The notes beneath the pieces are model-generated. The model worked only from the letters and a program-made list of their open reading frames with translations, had not been told where the DNA came from and ran no database searches. Shown piece by piece: positions 23,111 through 56,624 of a DNA stretch of 64,000 nucleotides; positions within the stretch are counted from its first letter, which is position 1; each line of letters opens with the position of its first letter. The position numbers and the translations under genes were made by a program. Source of the DNA: an uncultured Erysipelotrichaceae bacterium (GTDB lineage: Bacteria; Bacillota_I; Bacilli_A; RF39; UBA660); NCBI GenBank assembly GCA_902767375.1, contig CACXGV010000042.1, positions 1,188 through 65,187 on the forward strand, given 5' to 3'.

Positions 23111-23465
23111 TGGTGGAGCCGACCAGAATCGAACTGGTGTCCAAAAGTATTTCTCAATATGCTCTACAAGTTTAGATAATTTGTTATTTCATTAGTGCCC
23201 CGCAAATTATCTAAAGAATCACTAACTGAGCTTATTAAATTTCGTTCAATAAACTAAGCAATTTATTAAATATATTCTACTATTATGAACCAACTATAAA
23301 CTCTGTAGAATTAATTTATAGCCAGTGATCCGTGCCTTTAATTAGGCAAATGCTAGATCAGTATTAAAATTAAATTTGTCAGTTATTTTAACTGTTTGCT
23401 GATTAGGTCAGCAACCACTTGCACATAAAGCAAAATATTCTTTTGTCGAAGCCAAAAACGGCCCC
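23111..23465 (-). ncRNA. ssrA: tmRNA (SsrA)
   Basis: The minus-strand 5' end is GGGGCCGTTTTTGGCTTCGAC. The 3' end is GGACACCAGTTCGATTCTGGTCGGCTCCACCA, a tRNA-Ala-like acceptor and T-arm. An internal tag ORF reads GAC AAA TTT AAT TTT AAT ACT GAT CTA GCA TTT GCC TAA, encoding (A)DKFNFNTDLAFA. Confidence 0.92.
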
Positions 23466-27978: not shown

Positions 27979-29520
27979 TTATTTTTCACCTTGTTCAATA
28001 CGAGTAAATAAGATTTGTGGTTCTTTTAATTTAGTTCCAGATGGGTATTGACCAAAAGTTTTTGTACTTTCATATGAAGTTAAGTCTGTATTTAATAAAT
28101 CAAATATTTTTTCACTAGTATCGGGAATAAATGCTTGTAAATATACGGCGCATACTCTTATAGTCTCTATTAAATTATATAAAACTGTTTTTAATCGATC
28201 TGTTTTTGTTTCATCTTTAGCTAGAGCCCAAGGTGTTGTTTCGTCTATATATTTATTTGCTGCCCTTAATACTTCAAAGATATCGGTAATTGCATCTGCT
28301 ATTCTTAATTTATCCATATCTTGTTTAACTTTAGAACCCAATTCTTCAACTAGTTTTATTAAATTTTCATCTTCTTTATCATTTACTTTGGTATTTTCAA
28401 CTATACCATCAAAATATTTATAGCTCATTGAAATAGTACGATTTACTAAGTTCCCAAGAATATTAGCTAAATCTGAATTGTTTCTTTCTATAATTAGGTC
28501 TTCTGTTATATTTCCATCATCAGCAAATGGTATTTCATGAAGCACATAATATCTAATTGTGTCTAAACCATATTTTTCAATTAAATCATCGGCATATAAA
28601 ACATTCCCTTTTGATTTACTCATCTTATCTGAACTAGTTAATAACCAAGGATGCCCAAAAACTTGTTTTGGTAGTTCTACTCCTAAAGCCATTAGAATGA
28701 TAGGCCAATAAATTGTATGGAATCTAATTATATCCTTACCTATCAAATGTAAATCAGCTGGCCAATATTTTTTAAAGAAGTCGGAACTCTCTTCTACGTC
28801 ATAACCTGGGAATGTTATATAGTTAGATAATGCATCAATCCAAACATATACTACATGTTTGTCATTAAAATCTACTTTTACACCCCAATCAAATGCTGTA
28901 CGTGATACGCATAAGTCTTGAAGACCTGGTTTTAGGAAATTATTAATCATTTCATTTTTTCTAGATTCAGGTTGAATAAATTCTGGATGTTCTTCTATAT
29001 ATTTAATTAGTTTGTCTTGATATTTTGAAAGTTTAAAAAAGTATGCTTCTTCACTTTTCTTTTCAACATCTCTTCCACAATCAGGACATTTACCATCTAC
29101 TAATTGAGTTTCGGTGAAGAATGATTCACATGGGGTACAATACCAACCTTCATATTTATCTAAATAAATATCTCCTTGATCGTATAGTTTTTTAAAGATA
29201 TGTTGAACTACTTCTTTATGATGAGGATCTGATGTTCTAACAAATCTATCATAAGTAGTGTTCATTAAGTCCCAAATTCTTTTTATTTCTGCGGCTTTTT
29301 CATCGACAAATTGCTGAGGTGTTAATCCCGCTTCAGCAGCTTTTAACTGAATTTTTTCACCATGTTCATCGGTTCCAGTCTGAAAATAAACATCATAACC
29401 TTCTAATCTCTTGTTTCTTGCAATGGCATCTGCAAGGACGATTTCATAGGTGTTCCCAATATGAGGCTTTCCAGATGCATATGCTATTGCGGTAGAGATA
29501 TAATACTTTTCTTTTTCCAT
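27979..29520 (-). CDS. metG: Methionyl-tRNA synthetase (short form, no C-terminal tRNA-binding appendix)
   Basis: AYASGKPHIGN is the HIGH motif and KMSKSKGN is the KMSKS motif. There is a CxxC...CPDC zinc knuckle. The start is at the ATG at 29520 (MEKEKYYIST). Confidence 0.93.
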   Translation of the reverse strand: MEKEKYYISTAIAYASGKPHIGNTYEIVLADAIARNKRLEGYDVYFQTGTDEHGEKIQLKAAEAGLTPQQFVDEKAAEIKRIWDLMNTTYDRFVRTSDPHHKEVVQHIFKKLYDQGDIYLDKYEGWYCTPCESFFTETQLVDGKCPDCGRDVEKKSEEAYFFKLSKYQDKLIKYIEEHPEFIQPESRKNEMINNFLKPGLQDLCVSRTAFDWGVKVDFNDKHVVYVWIDALSNYITFPGYDVEESSDFFKKYWPADLHLIGKDIIRFHTIYWPIILMALGVELPKQVFGHPWLLTSSDKMSKSKGNVLYADDLIEKYGLDTIRYYVLHEIPFADDGNITEDLIIERNNSDLANILGNLVNRTISMSYKYFDGIVENTKVNDKEDENLIKLVEELGSKVKQDMDKLRIADAITDIFEVLRAANKYIDETTPWALAKDETKTDRLKTVLYNLIETIRVCAVYLQAFIPDTSEKIFDLLNTDLTSYESTKTFGQYPSGTKLKEPQILFTRIEQGEK

Positions 29521-29539
29521 TTTTATCATTCCTTTCATT

Positions 29540-29736
29540 AAAAAAATCATGAACTAAAGGACGGATATTTCCGCGGTACCACCTTAATTCATGATTATCT
29601 CATGCTCTTTATCCTTAACGCGGATGAACGTTTAAACTCCAGAGCCATGTTCATTAATACCAATTAATTCTCTTTCAGCACATGAGAACTCTCTTTATAA
29701 TTAGTTATTAATTACTCTTTCCTTCTTCGCTTAATA
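29540..29736 (-). promoter_or_regulatory. T-box riboswitch leader (Met specifier) controlling metG
   Basis: The minus strand carries stem I elements (AGAGAG...GCTGAAAGAG) and an AUG specifier in GAACAUGGCUCUGGAG. The conserved T-box AAGGTGGTACCGCG is present. The terminator is TCATGAA..AAGG/CCTTTAGTTCATGA followed by TTTTTTT. An upstream promoter reads TTGATT-17-TAAAAT with a TGn extension (29742-29770). Confidence 0.88.
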
Positions 29737-37280: not shown

Positions 37281-38852
37281 CTAATTTACTTCTACAATCT
37301 CTTCTGCAAATATATCTAATGCTGAATCAATTATTTTAACATCTTCGTTAATTTTTGGTTCATCTATGTAACTATATTCTTTGTCTTTATTTTTTATAAA
37401 TTGCTTTTTTTCTTTTTGCCATTCATCATCAGTTAAGCATATTGTTTTTATATTAATTTTTTCACTTTTTAATAGTTCTTCTTCTATTAAATTGGATTTT
37501 TCATTATACAAAAGTGCGGTTGATGATGATTTTATTGAAAACAATACATTAGTTGGCGAAACAACTTCGATAGAAAGATCTTCTAGAAGAGATAACATTT
37601 CAACATTTGATTTATCAATCTCTTTATTTATAAATATTTCCCAAGATTTTTTAAATTTTTCTTTTTCCTGTTTTGAAGCTCCAACAAATGCATTATTAAT
37701 TCTAATTTTTTTAATATCATCGGAAATTACAGGCTTTGATTCTATTTTTAATTCTGCACTTTCTTCTTTTTCACTTGTTACTTCGGTTGGCTTTGAAATT
37801 ATTTCCCGGGAAATAATTTCAGGGTTTTTTTCTTGGGAAATAATTTGGGAAATATTACTTACAATAATCATTTTTATAAGTAATAAGGCATCTTGCTTGT
37901 TATAACATTTTATTAGTTCGTTTGCCATTGTTTTAATTTGATCTATTGATAAAAAGTGTTTTTTTCCAGAAACTATCCCTATTTCCAAGGTATAAAGGTA
38001 GTTTAATATTTTTGAAATTAGCAAGTTTGTGTCCAATCCTTTTTTTGAATATTCATCGAATATTCCTTCAAGCTTTTCTATGTCCCCTTTAGATAAACAG
38101 TTAAATATCTCTTCAACCTCATTTTCAGTTAATACACCAAAAGATTCCTGGATTAAATCCACAGTTATTTCTTTTTCTTCTTTTGATAATTGATCAAGTA
38201 AACTCAAAGCATCTCTCATACCGCCATCAGCTAATGAAGCTATATAGTTAGCGGCTTCTTGGTTTATTTTTATTTTTTCCAATTTAGAAATTCTTAATAT
38301 ATTTTCTGCTATAATTTCAACTGAAATTTTTTGAAAGTTAAATCTTTGACATCTTGAAAGGATTGTTATTGGTATTTTTTGGATTTCAGTTGTTGCTAGA
38401 ATGAATATTACATGCTTTGGTGGTTCTTCTAATATCTTTAAGAACGCATTCCAAGCACTTTGTGACAACATGTGTACTTCATCTATTATATATACTTTAT
38501 ATTTACTGAATGCAGGTAATATTTTTGCGTTATCTCTTAAATCTCTTATTTCATCAACTCCATTATTTGAAGCAGCATCTATTTCAATTATATCTGGAGA
38601 TTGTTCATAGTTAATGCATGGCATACATTTATTGCATGGTATACCATCTTTAGGATTTTCACAGTTTATTGTTTTAGCAAATAGTTTTGCTGTACTTGTT
38701 TTTCCTGTTCCTCTAGGGCCGGAGAATAAATAAGCGTGTGAAATTTTATCATTAATTATAGAATCTATTAGTAATTTTTTTATTGTGTTTTGACCAAATA
38801 AGGTGTTAAAGTCTTGTGGTCTATATTTACGGTATAATACTTTATATGCCAT
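37281..38852 (-). CDS. dnaX: DNA polymerase III subunit gamma/tau
   Basis: GPRGTGKTS is the Walker A motif. The zinc module is CENP..GIPCNKCMPC. IIDEVHMLS and SRC are also present. Confidence 0.93.
   Translation of the reverse strand: MAYKVLYRKYRPQDFNTLFGQNTIKKLLIDSIINDKISHAYLFSGPRGTGKTSTAKLFAKTINCENPKDGIPCNKCMPCINYEQSPDIIEIDAASNNGVDEIRDLRDNAKILPAFSKYKVYIIDEVHMLSQSAWNAFLKILEEPPKHVIFILATTEIQKIPITILSRCQRFNFQKISVEIIAENILRISKLEKIKINQEAANYIASLADGGMRDALSLLDQLSKEEKEITVDLIQESFGVLTENEVEEIFNCLSKGDIEKLEGIFDEYSKKGLDTNLLISKILNYLYTLEIGIVSGKKHFLSIDQIKTMANELIKCYNKQDALLLIKMIIVSNISQIISQEKNPEIISREIISKPTEVTSEKEESAELKIESKPVISDDIKKIRINNAFVGASKQEKEKFKKSWEIFINKEIDKSNVEMLSLLEDLSIEVVSPTNVLFSIKSSSTALLYNEKSNLIEEELLKSEKINIKTICLTDDEWQKEKKQFIKNKDKEYSYIDEPKINEDVKIIDSALDIFAEEIVEVN
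37800..37815. promoter_or_regulatory. Noc-binding-site (NBS)-type palindrome TATTTCCCGGGAAATA inside dnaX
   Basis: This perfect 16-bp palindrome contains the 14-bp B. subtilis NBS consensus ATTTCCCGGGAAAT. Degenerate half-sites (TTGGGAAATAATTTGGGAAAT) follow it. It lies in the poorly conserved tau linker (peptide ...EIISREIISKP...). Confidence 0.55.
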
Positions 38853-39326: not shown

Positions 39327-39337
39327 TTTTTACTCCT

Positions 39338-39417
39338 AAAAAAAGCGCACATACAAAGAGGCAAATATGGCTGCTTTCTTCCGAATCTGACCAGTTTATT
39401 GCATATGTATTGCGCAA
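39338..39417 (-). ncRNA. ffs: Signal recognition particle RNA, short (4.5S-like) form
   Basis: The minus strand reads GCGCAATACATATGCAATAAACTGGTCAGATTCGGAAGAAAGCAGCCATATTTGCCTCTTTGTATGTGCGC followed by a T7 run. It contains the conserved domain IV GGUCAG.UUC[GGAA]GAAAGCAGCC with a GNRA tetraloop and symmetric loop. The closing helix is GCGCA.AUACA/UGUAU.UGCGC. A promoter and a T-run bracket it tightly. Confidence 0.8.
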
Positions 39418-39421
39418 TTTA

Positions 39422-39451
39422 ATAATATCATATTTTTAATTATAATGGCAA
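39422..39451 (-). promoter_or_regulatory. Promoter of the SRP RNA gene
   Basis: On the minus strand TTGCCA is followed by an 18-nt spacer and TATTAT, with a TGn extended -10 (TGATATTAT). The predicted start is about 7 nt downstream, at the first G of the closing helix. Confidence 0.6.
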
Positions 39452-39464
39452 TCATTACTTATTA

Positions 39465-39480
39465 TGTTTCACGTGAAACA
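39465..39480. promoter_or_regulatory. parS: parS site 1 (TGTTTCACGTGAAACA)
   Basis: This is a perfect 16-bp palindrome matching the Firmicute parS consensus TGTTNCACGTGAAACA. It lies 14 bp upstream of the ffs -35 element. Confidence 0.8.
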
Positions 39481-39529
39481 ATTTTAGCAATTTTTTAAAA
39501 TTAAGGTTTTTATATATTTGTGAATTTTT

Positions 39530-39545
39530 TATTTCCCGGGAAATA
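39530..39545. promoter_or_regulatory. NBS-type palindrome TATTTCCCGGGAAATA (between parS 1 and 2)
   Basis: This perfect 16-bp palindrome is identical to the copies at 37800 and 40115. It contains the NBS consensus ATTTCCCGGGAAAT. Confidence 0.6.
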
Positions 39546-39565
39546 TTTTTTTGATAATTTTTAGA

Positions 39566-39581
39566 TGTTTCACGTGAAACA
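39566..39581. promoter_or_regulatory. parS: parS site 2
   Basis: Perfect TGTTTCACGTGAAACA. The palindrome extends to 18 bp (ATGTTTCACGTGAAACAT). Confidence 0.8.
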
Positions 39582-39693
39582 TTGTTTATGAAATATATAT
39601 TTTTTATCTATTTATTTAATAATTTTAGCAATTGATTGTTCTATAAAATATTTTATTTAGTTTCTTAAATAATTTCCTAATATTTATAATTGA

Positions 39694-39709
39694 TGTTTCA
39701 CGTGAAACA
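39694..39709. promoter_or_regulatory. parS: parS site 3
   Basis: Perfect TGTTTCACGTGAAACA. It forms the left end of 117-bp repeat unit A. Confidence 0.8.
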
Positions 39710-39791
39710 TTGTTGATAACTATTAATAAATATAGTTATATTACTCACCTCTAAGTTTTACAATGTGTTTTATGTACTGTTCATAATTTAA

Positions 39792-39807
39792 TGTTTCACG
39801 TGAAACA
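39792..39807. promoter_or_regulatory. parS: parS site 4
   Basis: Perfect TGTTTCACGTGAAACA. It forms the right end of repeat unit A, 98 bp from site 3. Confidence 0.8.
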
Positions 39808-39951
39808 TTAAATTTTAAAATACTATTTGTCCGCTTTGTTATATTATAATTGCTATTGCTGTTTTTTTAATATCAGTTCTTGTAATTAAGATGCTTTTTT
39901 AGTTTTTTTATTTTGGTTTTGCTGTTTGCAATTTTTTTAATGGTTTTTTTA

Positions 39952-39967
39952 TGTTTCACGTGAAACA
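39952..39967. promoter_or_regulatory. parS: parS site 5
   Basis: Perfect TGTTTCACGTGAAACA. It forms the left end of repeat unit B. Confidence 0.8.
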
Positions 39968-40049
39968 TTGTTTATAACTATTAATAAATATAGCAATATT
40001 AGTCATTTTTGAGTTTTATAATATATTTTATGTATTGTTCTTGAATTAA

Positions 40050-40065
40050 TGTTTCACGTGAAACA
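40050..40065. promoter_or_regulatory. parS: parS site 6
   Basis: Perfect TGTTTCACGTGAAACA. It forms the right end of repeat unit B, 98 bp from site 5. Confidence 0.8.
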
Positions 40066-40114
40066 TTAATTACAGATTTTAAAAATCTGAATTTTTTAAA
40101 TTTTGTTTACTTTT

Positions 40115-40130
40115 TATTTCCCGGGAAATA
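40115..40130. promoter_or_regulatory. NBS-type palindrome TATTTCCCGGGAAATA (right flank of the parS array, abutting the gyrA terminator)
   Basis: Perfect 16-bp palindrome, the third identical copy in the window. Confidence 0.6.
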
Positions 40131-40158
40131 AAAAAAGAAGAATATTTCTATTCTTCTT
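40131..40158 (-). terminator. Terminator after gyrA
   Basis: On the minus strand AAGAAGAATA-GAAA-TATTCTTCTT is followed by TTTTTTT. It overlaps the gyrA stop codon. Confidence 0.7.
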
Positions 40159-42709
40159 TAGAGTTTTCAACATTATTTTCAGTATCTACTATTTCATCTT
40201 CTTCATTTTTTTGGATTAAGCTAATAGATGATACTTGTTGATTATCTTTAAGATTTATTAGTCTCGTTCCTTGGGTAACTCTACCAAGCTGTGATATTTG
40301 ATCAACAGGAATCCTAATAATTGTTCCTGAATCAGTTATCAACATTAAATCTGAGTTATCTATAACTCGTTTAATAGCAACGATTTCACCATTCTTATCG
40401 GTAACGTTTAGAGCTTTAACTCCTTTGCTACCTCTTTTGGTTTTTCTAAATTCAGAAATTATAGTTTTCTTACCATATCCTTTTTTTGTAACAATTATTA
40501 TATTATCGGATTCTTTAGTTGTTTCTAAACTTACACAAGTAGATCCATCTAGATTAATTCCTTTTACTCCGCTTGCTGTTCTTCCCATAACTCTTATCTC
40601 ATTTTCATTAAATACAGCCATTTTACCTGAACTTGCTGCAAGCATTACGTCACATTCACCATCGGTTTTCTTTACATCAACCAATTCATCATTATCTTTT
40701 AATCCAATACATAATTTTCCTGTTTTTCTGATATTTTCAAATTCACGTACATCTGTTCGTTTTACTAATCCGTTCTTTGTAGCAAATAATAGATATTTGC
40801 ATACATCTTTAGCGGCAATTGACATTATTGATGATACTTTTTCATCTTTTTCAATTGGAAGTAAGTTGATTATTGGTAATCCCTTAGCAGCACGGCTATA
40901 TTCAGGTACCTCATAACCTTTAATTCTATACACTTTTCCTTTATTAGTGAAAATCAATAAGTGGTCGTGTGAGTCTAAATTTAAAATGTATTCTACGTAG
41001 TCTTCTTCATTAGTTGTCATTCCTTTAACTCCGACTCCACCACGGTTTTGTGTTTTATAATTATCTGATGTAATTCTCTTAATGTACCCGTTATGAGTTA
41101 GAGAAACTACTACATTATCGTTTGGAATTAGAGATTCATCCTCTATATAGTCTATTGCGGTCATATCGATATGAGTTCGACGTTCATCCGCATATTTGTC
41201 TTTTATTTCTTGTAATTCTTGTTTTACGATTTCTAGTACTTTTTCATCACTAGCTAAGATAGCTTTTAATTGTTCAATTAATTCTAGTAAATCAGCTAAT
41301 TCTTTTTCAATTTTTTCTCTTTCTAAGCCAGTTAGTCTTCTTAATCTCATTTCAAGAATGGCATCAGCTTGAATTTCAGATAGACCAAAATTCTTAATTA
41401 ATCCACTCTTTGCTTCTTCATCAGTTGCAGATTCTCTAATTAATTTGATTACAGCATCTATGTGATCTAGAGCTATTTTTAAACCTTCTAAAATATGAAC
41501 ACGATTTTCTGCTTTGTTTAAATCAAACTTTGTTCTTCGAACAATTACTGTTCTTTGATGATCAATATACTTAGAAATTATATCTTTTAAGCCTAGAACT
41601 CTAGGTGTTTTATCATCAATCATTAGGAATATTATTCCAAATGTAGTTTGAAAGTTAGTTAATTTATACAATTTATTTAATACAACTTGAGGATTTGCAT
41701 CTTTTTTTAGCGTAATAGTGATTTTTACACCATTTTTTAGATCAGTATGGTAGTCAGATATGCCATCTATTATTTTATTATGAACTAATTCTGCTACTCT
41801 TGTTTTTAAGTCTGATGTATTAACACCATAAGGAACCTCTGTAATGATAATATTACTATGGTTTTGATGTTCTTCAATTTCTGCCTTACTTCTAATAGTA
41901 ATTGTTCCTCGACCTGTTTCATAAGCTTTTTTAATTCCGCTATTTCCTAGTATGATACCACCAGTTGGAAAATCAGGTCCTTTAATATAATGCATTAATC
42001 CATTAGTATCGATATCGGGGTTGTCTATATACGCTATGCAGCCATCTATTACTTCACCTAGGTTGTGTGGTGGAATATTTGTGGCCATACCAACTGCGAT
42101 ACCCATGGTTCCGTTGACAAGTATATTAGGAAATTTTGATGGTAAAACCAAAGGTTCTTTTTTAGTTTCATCAAAGTTTAACTGCATGTCTACTGTATCT
42201 TTATTAATATCTTTTAATAATTCTAATGATATTTTTGATAATCTAGATTCAGTATAACGATATGCAGCTGCTCCATCACCATCAATATTACCAAAGTTTC
42301 CGTGTCCATCTACGAGAGTATATCTTTCTGTCCAGTCTTGAGCTAGACGAACCATTGCTTCATAAATTGAAGTATCTCCATGTGGATGGTAGGAACCAAT
42401 TACGTTACCTACTGTTGTGGCACATTTTTTATGAGGTTTATCTGGAGTATATCCATTTTCATACATTGACCATAAAATTCTACGATGAACTGGTTTTAGA
42501 CCATCTCTTAAATCTGGAATGGCACGAGCCATAATTACGCTCGCAGAATAATCAATAAAAGATTTTTTTACTTCATCAACAATATTATTATGAGTAAAAC
42601 TATCTCTTTCATGAAATTCGCCACTATAAATTGCTGTTTCTTCAGTACTTTCTTCTTCTGAGTCAATTGGTTCTATTTCATTTAAATTATTTAATTCTTC
42701 GTTGTCCAT
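40148..42709 (-). CDS. gyrA: DNA gyrase subunit A
   Basis: AIPDLRDGLKPVHRRILW and the catalytic segment AAAYRYTESRL are present, along with C-terminal beta-pinwheel repeats. The start is set at the ATG at 42709 (MDNEELNN), which has a GGGGTGA RBS. Confidence 0.94.
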   Translation of the reverse strand: MDNEELNNLNEIEPIDSEEESTEETAIYSGEFHERDSFTHNNIVDEVKKSFIDYSASVIMARAIPDLRDGLKPVHRRILWSMYENGYTPDKPHKKCATTVGNVIGSYHPHGDTSIYEAMVRLAQDWTERYTLVDGHGNFGNIDGDGAAAYRYTESRLSKISLELLKDINKDTVDMQLNFDETKKEPLVLPSKFPNILVNGTMGIAVGMATNIPPHNLGEVIDGCIAYIDNPDIDTNGLMHYIKGPDFPTGGIILGNSGIKKAYETGRGTITIRSKAEIEEHQNHSNIIITEVPYGVNTSDLKTRVAELVHNKIIDGISDYHTDLKNGVKITITLKKDANPQVVLNKLYKLTNFQTTFGIIFLMIDDKTPRVLGLKDIISKYIDHQRTVIVRRTKFDLNKAENRVHILEGLKIALDHIDAVIKLIRESATDEEAKSGLIKNFGLSEIQADAILEMRLRRLTGLEREKIEKELADLLELIEQLKAILASDEKVLEIVKQELQEIKDKYADERRTHIDMTAIDYIEDESLIPNDNVVVSLTHNGYIKRITSDNYKTQNRGGVGVKGMTTNEEDYVEYILNLDSHDHLLIFTNKGKVYRIKGYEVPEYSRAAKGLPIINLLPIEKDEKVSSIMSIAAKDVCKYLLFATKNGLVKRTDVREFENIRKTGKLCIGLKDNDELVDVKKTDGECDVMLAASSGKMAVFNENEIRVMGRTASGVKGINLDGSTCVSLETTKESDNIIIVTKKGYGKKTIISEFRKTKRGSKGVKALNVTDKNGEIVAIKRVIDNSDLMLITDSGTIIRIPVDQISQLGRVTQGTRLINLKDNQQVSSISLIQKNEEDEIVDTENNVENSKEE

Positions 42710-42725
42710 TTTTTCACCCCACTTA

Positions 42726-44657
42726 CTAAATATCGACGTCCGCATATCTTGCGTTATCTTCTATAAATTGTCTTCTTGGTTCTACTTCTTCTCCCATTAG
42801 TTTTTCAAATATTGCATCAGCTGCTATTAAATCATCAACTGTGATTCTTCTTAAAACTCGGGTATTAATATCCATTGTAGTTTCATATAATTCCTCAGCG
42901 TCCATTTCACCAAGACCTTTCATTCTGGTAATTTCAGCACGAGTACGATCGCTTTCTTTTAAAGTAGCTAAATATGAATCTCTCTCTTTTTCATCAAGGA
43001 CATATTTACGTGTTTTTCCAAATCTAATTCTAAATAATGGAGGTTGAGCGGCATACACATGACCAGCTTCAACAATTGGTCTAAAATAACGATAAAATAA
43101 GGTTAATAATAGTACTCTAATATGTGCTCCGTCAACATCGGCATCGGTCATAATTACAATTTTGTCATATCTTAATTTAGAAATATCAAAGTCGGCTCCA
43201 ATTCCAGTGCCAAAAGCGGTAATTATTGTTTTAATTTCCTCATTAGATAATGCTTTATCTAATCTTGCTTTTTCAACATTTAAAATTTTACCTCTTAAAG
43301 GAAGAATTGCTTGAGTCATAGAATCTCTTCCTTCTTTTGCTGATCCTGCTGCTGAATCTCCCTCGACTATAAAGATTTCGGAAACTACTGGATCTTTGCT
43401 TTTACAATCTGATAGTTTTCCCCATGTATTAACTGTTGTTAAATCAGATCTTCTTGAAGCCTCTCTAGCTTTTCTAGCAGCATTTCTTGCTCGACAAGCC
43501 GCTAAGGCTTTATCAATAATTATTCTTGCTTCTGAGGGATTTTCCATTAAGAATCTTTCAAATCCTTGTGAAAATACAGAATCTGCTAATTTTCTAACTT
43601 CAGAGTTCCCTAATCTTCCTTTTGTTTGTCCTTCGAATTGAGGATTTGGATGTTTACAAGAAATAATCATTGTTAAACCTTCTTTAACATCATCTCCAGT
43701 TAAAGATTCATCTTTTTCCTTTAAGATATTCGTTTTTCTAGCATAATTATTTATTACTCTAGTTAATGCTCTTCTTACTCCTTCTTCATGGGTTCCACCA
43801 TCGTGAGTATTGATATTGTTAACAAACGAATATATATTGTCATTATATCCAGTATTGTATTGCATTGCGACTTCAAAGAATACTCCATCTTCTTCACCCT
43901 CAAGATGGATTATATCTTCATGAACTGGTGTTTTACCACTATTAATGAATTTTACATATTCACTAATTCCACCTTCATATAGAAAATGTTCACCAGTGGT
44001 GTCTTCTTCATTACGATCGTCTCTTAAAGTAAGAGCTAATCCTTTATTTAGGAATGCTAGTTCTCTTACTCTTACTTTTAAAGTTTCGTAATCGAAAATT
44101 TCTGTATCAAAGATGTCTGGATCTGGTTTAAATGATACTGTTGTTCCAGTACGATTTGCTTCGCATTCTCCTATAACAGTTAGCTTTTGAGCTGTTTTTC
44201 CACCATTTTCAAATTTAGCTTCGTATATTTTTCCTTCTTTATAAACTGTAACGACAACCCATTTTGATAGTGCATTAACAACAGATGCTCCTACTCCGTG
44301 AAGTCCACCTGATACTTTATATCCTCCACCACCAAATTTTCCACCGGCATGTAACACTGTATATACTGTTTCTACAGTAGAAATACCAGTTTTTTTATGG
44401 ATTCCTACTGGAATACCTCTACCATCATCTTTAACAGTTATAGAATTATCTTTATTGATAATTATTTCAATATTTTTACAAAATCCAGCCAATGCTTCAT
44501 CTATTGAATTATCAACAATTTCCCATACTAAATGGTGAAGACCTTTTACATCTGTTGTACCAATGTACATACCGGGTCTTTTTCTTACTGCTTCTAAACC
44601 TTCTAAGACTTGAATATCACTTTCGTTATATTCTAAATTATTGTTATCGTTATTCAT
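42726..44657 (-). CDS. gyrB: DNA gyrase subunit B
   Basis: The GHKL ATPase is marked by [16 protein letters not shown] and GLHGVG. The Toprim domain is marked by [14 protein letters not shown]-like and the [12 protein letters not shown] motifs. Confidence 0.95.
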
Positions 44658-45848: not shown

Positions 45849-46295
45849 TTAGCTATTTTTTCTATTTTTAAAATTGTTCTCTAAAGATAAAGATTTTAGA
45901 TATTGATTATTAATTATTCGATAAGTAGAATCTACTTCTAAACTTTCTTCATTTAAAAATTCTATACGACATTTATTATCATAATTAGTAATTCTACTAA
46001 TATTAGATAGATTTATCCAGGCACATTCTTTTAATCTTGGAGAACATGTGGGAAAAAATATTAATGGTTGATTTTCTGATACAATTATTGGTGCCTTGTA
46101 ATTAAAACCACTTATATCATATGTTCCTTTTATTCTTCCTTCCATACTACTTCCATTATAACGACAATTATCATCCATGATTCTAGAAATTTTTTGATCA
46201 ATTATATAACAATCATGTTTTTCATATACTACTGTTTTCTTTTTTCCTAATGGAAATAATGCTAGCGTATCGTTACTAATAAAATAATCTTTCAT
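45849..46295 (-). CDS. comK: Competence transcription factor ComK-family protein (short, 148 aa)
   Basis: C-RYNGSSMEGRIKGTYDISGFNYKAPIIVSENQPLIFFPTCSP....CAWIN aligns motif for motif with B. subtilis ComK as I remember it (CRFFGSSYAGRKAGTYEVT..HKPPIMV...IFLFPTLS....CGWIS). Confidence 0.8.
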   Translation of the reverse strand: MKDYFISNDTLALFPLGKKKTVVYEKHDCYIIDQKISRIMDDNCRYNGSSMEGRIKGTYDISGFNYKAPIIVSENQPLIFFPTCSPRLKECAWINLSNISRITNYDNKCRIEFLNEESLEVDSTYRIINNQYLKSLSLENNFKNRKNS

Positions 46296-47627: not shown

Positions 47628-48971
47628 TTAATTAACAATTTTATTTTTAATTTGTTCAATAGTTTCTTTTAATTCAAAATTTGTTTTTAATTCATCTGCT
47701 ATCTTTTCATAAGAATGCAATACTGTTGAATGATCTCTATTTCCAAATTCTAGTCCTATTTTAACTATTGTTTCTTCTGTGGTCATCCGACATAGATACA
47801 TTGCTATTTGTCTTGGATAATTTATATTTGCTGTCCTTTTTTTACTTTTTAAATCTTCTATAGTTATTTTAAAGTGATCTGCAACAGCTTTTTGAATTCT
47901 TTGTATATCATTTGTTACGTATATTGATGATACTAAGTAATCCTTTAAAGCTTCAACAGCAAATTCTAAGTTTATTTCTTTTGGACACATCATCGCTGCA
48001 TAGGCATATAGAATATTGATAGCTCCTTCTAAATGTCTTACATCATTTTCACTATTAGATGCTATATATTCAATAACTTCGTTGTCTACTAAGTTTGCTA
48101 CTTCATGTCCTGACATTTTATCTTTTAAAATTTTGCATTTTAATTCAAAATCTGGTGGATAAATATTAACTGTTAATCCCCATCTAAATCTAGTTCTTAA
48201 TCGATCTTCTAAGTATTTTAAATCGTCTGGAGAACGATCTGAACTTATAATTATTTGTTTATTTAAATCATATAATGTTGTAAATGTATGAAAGAATTCA
48301 TCTTGTGATTTAGCAGCACCTCCTAAGAATTGGATATCATCTATCATTAAGACATCTATATTTCGATATTTTTCTTTAAATTGACTTCTAATATCAAAAT
48401 TATTTTCATCTTTTTTAGTTATTCCGATAAAGTCTGCTATGAATTCTTCACTTGTTATATATAATACTGTTTTATTTGAATTTTTTTCAATATAATTGCC
48501 TATAGCATGCATTAAATGGGTTTTGCCTAAACCACTTTTTCCATATATAAATAATGGATTATATATCTTACCTGGTTGCTCAGCTACAGCTAAGGCAGCG
48601 GTTTGTGCAAATCGGTTACTATCACCTATCATAAAGTTTTCAAATGTATAGTTTGGATTTAAATTCGAATTAATTCTTTGGTGGATAACTTCCTCTTTTT
48701 CGACATTATCATTTATTGATTCTAGTTCTTCTTCGACAACAAATTCTAAATCATAGTTAGTTCCAGTTATTGAATTAATTATTTCTTCTATTAAATCATA
48801 ATAATTATCATTTAAGAATTTTTTATGGAATGTCATAGGCACTTGAATGATTAGTTTTCCATTTTTTATATCTACAAGTTTAGTTTCTTTAAACCAAGTA
48901 TTAAAGGAAATCGTAGTGATTCTTGTATTAAGTACGTTTAAAAAATTATTCCAAAGTTCGTCATTAGTCAT
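47628..48971 (-). CDS. dnaA: Chromosomal replication initiator DnaA
   Basis: Walker A GKSGLGKTHL and Walker B LMIDDIQF are present. Domain IV is marked by RQIAMYLCR and GNRDHSTVLH. Confidence 0.96.
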   Translation of the reverse strand: MTNDELWNNFLNVLNTRITTISFNTWFKETKLVDIKNGKLIIQVPMTFHKKFLNDNYYDLIEEIINSITGTNYDLEFVVEEELESINDNVEKEEVIHQRINSNLNPNYTFENFMIGDSNRFAQTAALAVAEQPGKIYNPLFIYGKSGLGKTHLMHAIGNYIEKNSNKTVLYITSEEFIADFIGITKKDENNFDIRSQFKEKYRNIDVLMIDDIQFLGGAAKSQDEFFHTFTTLYDLNKQIIISSDRSPDDLKYLEDRLRTRFRWGLTVNIYPPDFELKCKILKDKMSGHEVANLVDNEVIEYIASNSENDVRHLEGAINILYAYAAMMCPKEINLEFAVEALKDYLVSSIYVTNDIQRIQKAVADHFKITIEDLKSKKRTANINYPRQIAMYLCRMTTEETIVKIGLEFGNRDHSTVLHSYEKIADELKTNFELKETIEQIKNKIVN

Positions 48972-49019
48972 ATCCTCACCCCGCTATACTTGCTTACTAA
49001 AATAATTGTAAAACATCTT

Positions 49020-49028
49020 TGTGGAAAA
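49020..49028 (-). promoter_or_regulatory. DnaA box (TTTTCCACA, one mismatch to TTATCCACA)
   Basis: The plus strand reads TGTGGAAAA. Confidence 0.65.
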
Positions 49029-49065
49029 AGAAAGATTTAAAATAAGATTTTTAATTATTCCTAGA

Positions 49066-49074
49066 TTTTCCACA
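49066..49074 (+). promoter_or_regulatory. DnaA box TTTTCCACA
   Basis: Read directly from the sequence. Confidence 0.65.
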
Positions 49075-49119
49075 GGGTTGTTAACAAATTTTTCATTATA
49101 ATACCTCATAAAAAATTAC

Positions 49120-49137
49120 TTTTCAACATTTTCCACA
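49120..49137 (+). promoter_or_regulatory. Head-to-tail DnaA box pair TTTTCAACA-TTTTCCACA
   Basis: Read directly from the sequence. The same tandem arrangement recurs at 47550-47567. Confidence 0.6.
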
Positions 49138-49162
49138 AAATAAAATTAACATTGTTTTTTTG

Positions 49163-49171
49163 CTTTCCACA
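49163..49171 (+). promoter_or_regulatory. DnaA box-like CTTTCCACA
   Basis: Read directly from the sequence. It has two mismatches to the consensus. Confidence 0.5.
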
Positions 49172-49203
49172 AATTAACAAAAATTATAAAAATAAATCTT
49201 TTA

Positions 49204-49232
49204 TTGACTTGATTAATTTATTATATTATAAT
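49204..49232 (+). promoter_or_regulatory. Promoter of rpmH
   Basis: TTGACT is followed by a 17-nt spacer and TATAAT, about 30 nt upstream of the rpmH ATG. Confidence 0.65.
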
Positions 49233-49262
49233 AAAAACGCCTATTGAAACGGAGGTGCGAAG

Positions 49263-55412: not shown

Positions 55413-56624
55413 ATGAATAGAGAATCAACAATTCAAAATATTAATGTAGATCTCATTATTCCAAATAGATTTCAACCAAGACTTACTTTTGATGAGAATG
55501 CTTTAAACGAACTTGCAAAATCTATTAAAGAGCATGGTATTATTCAACCCTTAGTTTTAAGAAGAGTAGATGACAAATATGAAATTATTGCTGGTGAAAG
55601 AAGATATAAAGCTGCTCAGCTTGCTGGGCTATCAGAAGTTCCTGCAATAATTACTGATATAGATGATAATAAGAGTGCAGAGGTTGCTTTAGTTGAAAAT
55701 GTGCAAAGAAAAAATTTGAATTCAATGGAAGAGGCGCGTTCTTATAAAAAAATATTAGATAAGGGTTATTTAACTCAAGAGGCCTTGGCACAAAAAATGG
55801 GAATTTCTCAATCTAATTTAGCTAATAAGTTAAGATTATTAAATCTAGCACCTGAAGTACAAGAAGCACTTGTTAATAATAAGATTAGTGAAAGACATGC
55901 AAGAAGTCTCTTATTAGTAAATGATCCTCTTAGACAAATTTCACTTCTTAATAGAATTATTGCAGAAAGATTAACAGTAAGACAACTAGATGCAATTATT
56001 AAGGAAAATACAACTACAACTGTAGTTCCAAGTCCTGTTAATATAACTCCATCTGTTGAAATTCCTGATGTGGTTAAAGAGGAGACTGTTACTCCAACAG
56101 AGGTGGTAGAAAATTCTCCTGTACAACAAGAAGAATCTGCTGTTGTAACAAATGAGGAAGTATCAGCTTCAGATAATGATACTGAAGGGGCGCAAACAGA
56201 TGTTGAAACACTTGATACTTTAGATGATGATATTGAGAAACATGATAATCCATTAGATAGAATTTTAGAAAAGATTACAGGACCACAATATCCTTCTCTT
56301 GAAGATGAAGCAGCTAATTTAAATATGGATACAGACGATTATTTTAATCCTTTTAATAATGTTGATAATGAACCAATGCCTCAATTTGATGCTCCAAAAG
56401 AAGAAGAAACTGCAGTAATAGAAGAGAAAGAAGAGGAAGTTTCAGAGGTAGTTGAAGAAAATCCTCAATTTGTAATTGAGCCTAATAATTTCGAATCAAT
56501 TAAGAAAGCATATAATAATTTAAGAAATGAAATCGAAAAAGCCGGTTATAAAATAACGACTGAAGATTTTGATTTTGAAGATATTTATCAAATAATTATT
56601 AAAATTGATAAACCAGAAGAATAA
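55413..56624 (+). CDS. noc: ParB-family protein with a Noc-type recognition helix, a long acidic insertion and no N-terminal membrane-targeting extension
   Basis: The ParB N-domain is marked by IPNRFQPR and IIAGERRYKAA. The HTH region is LTQEALAQKMGISQSNLANKLRLLNLAPEVQEALVNNKISERHARSLL. An Asp/Glu/Thr/Val-rich segment runs from about residue 200 to 345, followed by a small C-terminal domain. It lies directly after rsmG, where Bacillus noc sits. Confidence 0.75.
   Translation: MNRESTIQNINVDLIIPNRFQPRLTFDENALNELAKSIKEHGIIQPLVLRRVDDKYEIIAGERRYKAAQLAGLSEVPAIITDIDDNKSAEVALVENVQRKNLNSMEEARSYKKILDKGYLTQEALAQKMGISQSNLANKLRLLNLAPEVQEALVNNKISERHARSLLLVNDPLRQISLLNRIIAERLTVRQLDAIIKENTTTTVVPSPVNITPSVEIPDVVKEETVTPTEVVENSPVQQEESAVVTNEEVSASDNDTEGAQTDVETLDTLDDDIEKHDNPLDRILEKITGPQYPSLEDEAANLNMDTDDYFNPFNNVDNEPMPQFDAPKEEETAVIEEKEEEVSEVVEENPQFVIEPNNFESIKKAYNNLRNEIEKAGYKITTEDFDFEDIYQIIIKIDKPEE

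Follow-up and report, generated by a model that had tools for sequence, protein, structure and literature searches.

Six copies of one parS palindrome crowded into a single intergenic spacer raise the question of what kind of centromere this is, and of which proteins are likely to read it. The window, which is the whole 64-kb stretch of DNA analysed here, contains six exact copies of TGTTTCACGTGAAACA (parS-1 to parS-6, at 39465-39480, 39566-39581, 39694-39709, 39792-39807, 39952-39967 and 40050-40065), all matching the 16-bp palindromic consensus TGTTNCACGTGAAACA of ParB/Spo0J. The start-to-start spacings are 101, 128, 98, 160 and 98 bp, and the six sites together span 601 bp. The 16-mer was expected zero times by chance, as estimated from 100 dinucleotide-preserving shuffles, and no further parS occurs in the window at up to three mismatches to TGTTNCACGTGAAACA or up to two mismatches to the exact 16-mer. 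On the positions, the spacings and the lack of further copies, exact searches agree with the preliminary description of this DNA, which had also placed every site in the gyrA-ffs spacer and close to the origin. An independent ENA assembly (L134) is identical over 821/821 nt of the gyrA-tadA spacer, and the array is thus not an assembly artefact. Two short-read contigs of the same species (L135 and L136) break off within the array, suggesting that such arrays are probably under-represented or broken in metagenome assemblies.

All six sites lie within the 721 bp that separate ffs from the gyrA stop codon, in the local order recR-ybaB-dnaX-tadA-ffs, array, gyrA-gyrB-recF-comK-dnaN-dnaA, and this spacer carries no ORF longer than 38 codons and no mobile-element or par genes. 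On the left, the array is bounded by the gene of the small SRP RNA, ffs (39329-39426, minus strand; RF00169, 59.6 bits). The region's best promoter-like match for ffs, a putative sigma-70-like promoter recognized by consensus match only (39422-39451, minus strand; TTGCCA, an 18-nt spacer and TATTAT, with a TG), abuts parS-1, a perfect palindrome that lies 54 bp upstream of the ffs 5' end and just upstream of the -35 element. On the right, the boundary is gyrA (40148-42745, minus strand; NF004043, 1131 bits), whose intrinsic terminator (40130-40157, minus strand), called from a fold z of -3.8 together with a reading of the sequence, consists of a 10-bp A/U-rich hairpin over the stop codon followed by seven U. 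Farther to the right, the spacer (48972-49262) that separates dnaA (47628-48971) from rpmH is the likely oriC, as it holds three DnaA-box-like TTTTCCACA sites (49020-49137) at the GC-skew minimum, where the skew flips. The origin thus likely lies at about 49.0-49.2 kb, next to dnaA and about 9 kb from the array.

The preliminary description went on to call the array plasmid-style and its layout unusual, and here the evidence points the other way. The sopC centromere of the F plasmid is made of identical 43-bp units arranged head-to-tail next to sopAB. The present array resembles sopC in packing many partition-protein sites into a few hundred base pairs, but it is chromosomal, its spacing is irregular (98-160 bp), its spacers are mostly unrelated and no par operon, parAB included, adjoins it. 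There is no constant tandem unit. Only one duplication of 122 nt was found, with 87% identity between unit A (39690-39811), opened by parS-3 and closed by parS-4, and unit B (39948-40069), opened by parS-5 and closed by parS-6; the spacer between parS-1 and parS-2 is unrelated to those of the other two pairs, and Tandem Repeats Finder reported no array in the spacer. Extra parS copies arise through such local duplication. What remains of the earlier claim of a high-density chromosomal centromere is a genuine and conserved origin-proximal parS cluster, while the plasmid-like framing has to be given up.

Dense packing is not peculiar to this chromosome either. Pairs of perfect parS separated by 70-100 nt were sought in 185,579 species genomes, with at least 120 matches. 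Among the matches listed, dense arrays occur in many phyla and at least seven species outside the clade of the window carry six or more perfect parS in 600 bp; among these are a complete Paceibacterota chromosome and a contig of Lachnospiraceae whose array has parB about 1 kb from it. Two examples illustrate how tight such arrays can be: a Paceibacterota chromosome (L040, 1473-1827) with seven parS in 370 bp, and a Lachnospiraceae contig (L024, 1014-1338) with seven parS in two runs of 46-bp spacing. Closely positioned parS sites have in fact been described as the common case and the scattered layout of Bacillus subtilis as the exception (bioRxiv 10.1101/2020.12.04.411900; PMC7333895), and the reason why parS sites cluster has been posed as an open question (PMC7333895). 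Corynebacterium glutamicum carries ten parS in 35 kb (PMC7083940), and in Caulobacter crescentus, which has at least five, the ParB zone covers about 10 kb (PMC5815017). As in these two species, whose hubs load ParB and SMC, the sites described here are multiple consensus 16-bp parS, mostly intergenic and gathered in one origin-proximal hub. Unlike theirs, which are spaced by kilobases, six sites fit into 601 bp, the hub occupies the gyrA-ffs spacer and is not next to parAB, and the predicted sites of a second ParB-family protein are interleaved with it. Given these characterized clusters and the arrays of other phyla, parS density alone is not novel; the array is a very dense and well-conserved chromosomal centromere cluster, which supports tight parS clustering as the rule.

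The Spo0J-parS system of B. subtilis has the 16-mer consensus in common with the array and likewise belongs to a Firmicute host; in that system the loading of ParB-CTP clamps and the recruitment of SMC are established. Many of its parS lie inside genes. Eight sites are spread across about 0.75 Mb (bioRxiv 10.1101/2020.12.04.411900), whereas all detectable parS of the window are confined to one spacer.

A functional centromere that serves as a ParB-loading hub would lead one to expect arrays at the same junction in relatives, and the preliminary description had pointed to relatives as the place to look for them. At least 15 GTDB species representatives carry 3-11 parS at the gyrA-ffs junction, in synteny with the window. 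They are low-GC metagenome-assembled genomes labelled 'uncultured Bacilli/Firmicutes', one of them Candidatus Onthocola, and their GyrA is 60-73% identical to that of the window. In 13 of these 15 loci, the parS nearest to ffs is found 41-81 bp upstream of it (mostly 52-55 bp), and in eight a second lies at about -155 to -177; the spacer around these conserved positions is unalignable between loci. With two ffs-proximal positions kept across uncultured low-GC gut and rumen Bacilli, the cluster is apparently ancient. One clade relative (L042, 5384-5879) has ten parS, nine perfect and one with a single mismatch, at a period of 55 bp.

More informative than the parS array itself is a second palindrome interleaved with it. 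The motif ATTTCCCGGGAAAT (16-mer TATTTCCCGGGAAATA) is the Noc-binding site (NBS) of the Noc literature (PMC8429893; PMC7383237), and the window holds three exact copies of it, all within 2.3 kb of one another, with an expectation of 0.29 even when two mismatches are allowed. NBS-1 (37800-37815) is a perfect palindrome in the part of dnaX that encodes a variable linker (about codons 347-351), where it codes for EIISREII and uses the codons TCC and CGG. NBS-2 (39530-39545), a perfect TATTTCCCGGGAAATA palindrome followed by a T-run, lies between parS-1 and parS-2, its start being 65 bp past that of the former and 36 bp ahead of that of the latter; a 65/37 geometry of parS-NBS-parS recurs in a distant relative (L056). 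NBS-3 (40115-40130), also a perfect palindrome, is found directly downstream of the gyrA terminator, and its start is again 65 bp past that of a parS, in this case parS-6, so that the module parS-65 bp-NBS is present twice (repeat D3). Immediately after the gyrA terminator, NBS-3 sits inside a 24-nt palindrome, TTTTTATTTCCCGGGAAATAAAAA (window 40100-40135), which would fold as a second hairpin in the gyrA transcript.

Contigs that prolong the window by about 10 kb on its right and 3.6 kb on its left contain neither parS nor NBS at up to one mismatch, and the same holds for the 21 kb of origin-region DNA from each of two relatives. Over about 80 kb of this species and about 21 kb from each of the two relatives, NBS are thus confined to 2.3 kb at the parS array. 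NBS are present in 6 of the 15 clade loci versus 0 of 105 non-clade loci among the parS-pair matches listed. The other nine related species have parS arrays without any NBS within the 8 kb examined, which indicates that Noc sites are not obligatory to the centromere.

A metagenome scan for exact parS-N(5-35)-NBS composites extended this picture with at least 120 contigs. Sites lie beside gyrA, tadA or dnaX in 115 of the 120 composite loci listed, so that orthologous placement now covers these as well as the 15 genome loci, and no par genes were found in any of these 15 genome loci or 120 listed metagenome loci related to the window. Composite loci contain up to seven parS and nine NBS, some in alternating arrays, and the clade loci total 421 perfect parS and 303 perfect NBS. 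When the metagenome and genome loci with a near-full TadA were pooled with the window, 72 sequences fell into 66 clusters with an identity threshold of 95% and into 36 with one of 60%; the 66 clusters speak for a broad clade rather than one species repeatedly sampled. Across related loci, 19 NBS fall in the DnaX linker region, in at least 17 loci besides the window, and such recurrence in a coding linker, with TCC and CGG codons, suggests selection at the DNA level. In one composite locus (L178), parS and NBS alternate with a period of about 72 bp. Measured from start to start in clade loci L137-L256 and the 15 genome loci, a parS and its neighbouring NBS are most often about 26-28 bp or about 36 bp apart. 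These two peaks differ by roughly one helical turn, a pattern biased by the 5-35 gap of the search and by shared ancestry, and to be taken as a lead only. In a limited search of the literature, we found no description of interleaved parS and NBS.

A candidate reader of the NBS is encoded in the window itself. Immediately after rsmG lies the gene of a Noc-type ParB paralogue of 403 aa, here called Noc* (55413-56624, plus strand), which is the only ParB-family ORF of the 64 kb. It scores 269.8 bits against the NCBIfam profile of Noc (TIGR04285), below the cut-off of 315, and its C-terminal 74 residues match the end of that profile weakly (E = 0.026). Its best PDB matches are chains of Noc (1e-55), followed by Spo0J (1e-46). 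In Caulobacter ParB, specificity is switched from parS to NBS by changing R173, T179, A184 and G201 to Q, K, K and R, and one lysine suffices (PMC7383237). The equivalent positions of Noc* are Q133, K139, N144 and R161, three of the four residues of the Q-K-K-R set, and this Q-K-N-R combination is invariant in 13 aligned homologues. Among 269 family sequences, 237 could be typed, all of them Q...R and 210 of them QKNR; no R...G type was recognized among the 32 that failed the motif search when these were read by eye. The CTP motifs GERR and ENxQR are intact and invariant in the alignment. Moreover, rsmG and noc* are adjacent in the window, as in known Noc-NBS systems, and the order rsmG-noc*-PBP1A is found in two relatives, one of them on a 525-kb contig. 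Noc* is likely the reader of the NBS sites. The metagenomic family of Noc* comprises more than 150 clusters at 50% identity, with lengths of 227-744 aa.

Noc* resembles the Noc-NBS systems of B. subtilis and Geobacillus in its identical NBS, Noc-type residues, intact CTP motifs and rsmG neighbour (PMC8429893; PMC4331003; PMC7383237), and departs from them in three respects. Missing from it is the N-terminal amphipathic helix of 10 residues on which B. subtilis Noc depends for membrane binding (PMC8429893) and for nucleoid occlusion: the ORF extends only four codons beyond the ATG on the upstream side, the PNRFQPR motif comes after about 16 residues throughout the family, and the alignment of homologues begins at residue 1. 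It carries an acidic, hypervariable linker, 150-500 residues long in the family, with conserved TLDTLD, YPSLEDE and FNPFNN motifs that look like partner-binding peptides. Finally, its predicted sites are concentrated at the centromere in the DNA examined, unlike the NBS of those systems, which are scattered over the chromosome and missing from the terminus. With a score below the NCBIfam cut-off and without the helix, the role of Noc* is not transferable from B. subtilis Noc.

If Noc* reads the NBS, the reader of parS has to be considered separately. No gene of a Spo0J-type (R...G) ParB was found between about -52 and +25 kb of oriC. A phmmer search with Noc* against all ORFs of the window revealed no second ParB-family gene, and the contigs that add about 10 kb on the right and 3.6 kb on the left contain none. 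In B. subtilis, soj-spo0J come after noc, which is not the case at noc* in the window; soj and spo0J are likewise not next to noc* in the two relatives, with about 21 kb of origin-region DNA covered in each. Six-frame searches for ParB found none in the 120 listed parS-NBS composite loci and no clade locus with parB among the 120 listed parS-pair loci, while parB adjoins the arrays of many unrelated taxa among the latter. One locus with parA-parB, three parS and 27% GC (L079) was considered as a clade member and rejected, as its match to the window is confined to a rubrerythrin gene and it is labelled Clostridia. A search of representative sequences with residues 1-200 of Noc* returned only members of its own family in the top 150, all Q...R. 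In Staphylococcus aureus, parB is separated from noc, and the absence of ParB near oriC is for this reason weak evidence. B. subtilis Noc, in turn, neither nucleates nor loads on parS (PMC8429893), which implies a separate ParB as the parS reader.

The presence of NBS at the parS locus, together with a gene for a Noc-type CTP-clamp protein, is best read as a shared two-clamp loading zone: the array is probably the chromosomal centromere, and the locus a zone in which ParB would load at parS and Noc* at NBS. By analogy with established ParB biochemistry, from which we infer binding, CTP-dependent loading and SMC recruitment here, each parS would nucleate one ParB dimer, which, once bound to CTP, would close as a clamp, quit parS and slide across the neighbouring few kilobases. 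Six sites would then allow faster loading at one point and yield one compact ParB zone that could bring in SMC and single out the origin region for segregation. Noc*, with its NBS-type residues and without a membrane helix, would load at NBS in the same locus.

A more specific version of this shared loading zone can be put forward tentatively. According to it, the helix-less Noc paralogue loads at NBS only 20-70 bp from parS in one conserved locus, and acts at the centromere rather than in genome-wide nucleoid occlusion. Noc* would then be an origin organiser, a modulator of ParB and SMC, or a tether acting through the motifs of its linker, and its present state may be close to that of the original ParB duplication.

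The array could be an ordinary parS centromere and nothing more, its CCCGGG palindromes being incidental hairpins or terminator elements without Noc function. The position of NBS-3 directly after the gyrA terminator, where it folds into a second hairpin, would suit such a reading, as would the T-run after NBS-2 and the nine related arrays that lack NBS. Terminators, however, do not conserve sequence in this manner: the full 16-mer, including the loop CCGG, is exact across dozens of species in 303 perfect copies, and 19 copies lie in the coding sequence of dnaX with its TCC and CGG codons. Besides, T-runs 3' of the palindrome are inconsistent between species, a terminator scan of the region gave none, and a protein with matching NBS-type specificity residues is encoded in this genome, all of which makes incidental hairpins unlikely. 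Still harder to sustain is the view that a MITE or generic dispersed repeat ends in the 16-mer, or that the array is left over from an integrated plasmid centromere. The recent 122-nt duplication that produced pairs 2 and 3 and the contigs L135 and L136 that stop inside the array would be compatible with it; yet there is no other copy in the 64 kb, no mobile-element or par gene in the spacer and no constant repeat unit, and the array keeps its position in species with only 60-73% GyrA identity. This view is already contradicted, and we regard it as highly improbable.

Another possibility concerns the reader rather than the sites. Canonical ParB could have been lost, leaving Noc* as the sole ParB-family protein to read both parS and NBS, or an unrelated factor could read parS; in the former case, the centromere would depend on a repurposed Noc. 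The lack of a second ParB-family gene in about 80 kb around oriC, in about 21 kb from each of two relatives and in the 120 listed composite loci is what such a loss would leave behind, and the 150 representatives closest to the N-terminal 200 residues of Noc* are all Q...R; the S. aureus arrangement mentioned above nevertheless takes much of the force out of an absence near oriC. Against a dual role of Noc*, a Q at the equivalent of residue 173 is unable to form a hydrogen bond with the parS guanine, the R at 201 is the residue that selects the NBS cytosine, and the variants with dual specificity mostly carry T or S at 201 rather than R (PMC7383237). B. subtilis Noc, moreover, shows no loading at parS (PMC8429893). 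The loss of canonical ParB thus appears quite unlikely.

What is new here is that a parS centromere is joined by Noc-type sites and by a Noc paralogue that lacks the helix. Second DNA-binding systems of the origin region are known elsewhere, such as RacA-ram in B. subtilis. RicO-ricS and RacA-ram resemble the present locus in having a second sequence-specific protein whose sites cluster around the origin and parS, and the role proposed for both is to anchor or organise the origin, in functional interplay with ParB and SMC. RicO and RacA are unrelated to ParB, whereas Noc* is its paralogue. The predicted sites of Noc* are 20-70 bp away from parS, and the ricS sites of S. aureus at least 5 kb (bioRxiv 10.64898/2026.03.06.710092). 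The switch in specificity between the two paralogues that recognize these sites has been traced to four residues, and their sites can evidently stay side by side at one locus across dozens of species. The locus bears on the divergence of Noc from ParB. It also offers a natural system for asking what Noc does without its membrane helix, and prompts one to ask whether two CTP clamps hinder or assist each other when they load within tens of base pairs.

Several other features of the window deserve mention. A ComK-family gene (45849-46295, minus strand; PF06338, 121 bits) lies between dnaN and recF, and likewise in two relatives (L125 and L127), at the place that is occupied in B. subtilis by the small gene yaaA. 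A T-box leader (29554-29736, minus strand) is found upstream of the methionyl-tRNA synthetase gene (27979-29550). Finally, a tmRNA gene (23111-23465, minus strand) encodes the tag peptide DKFNFNTDLAFA.
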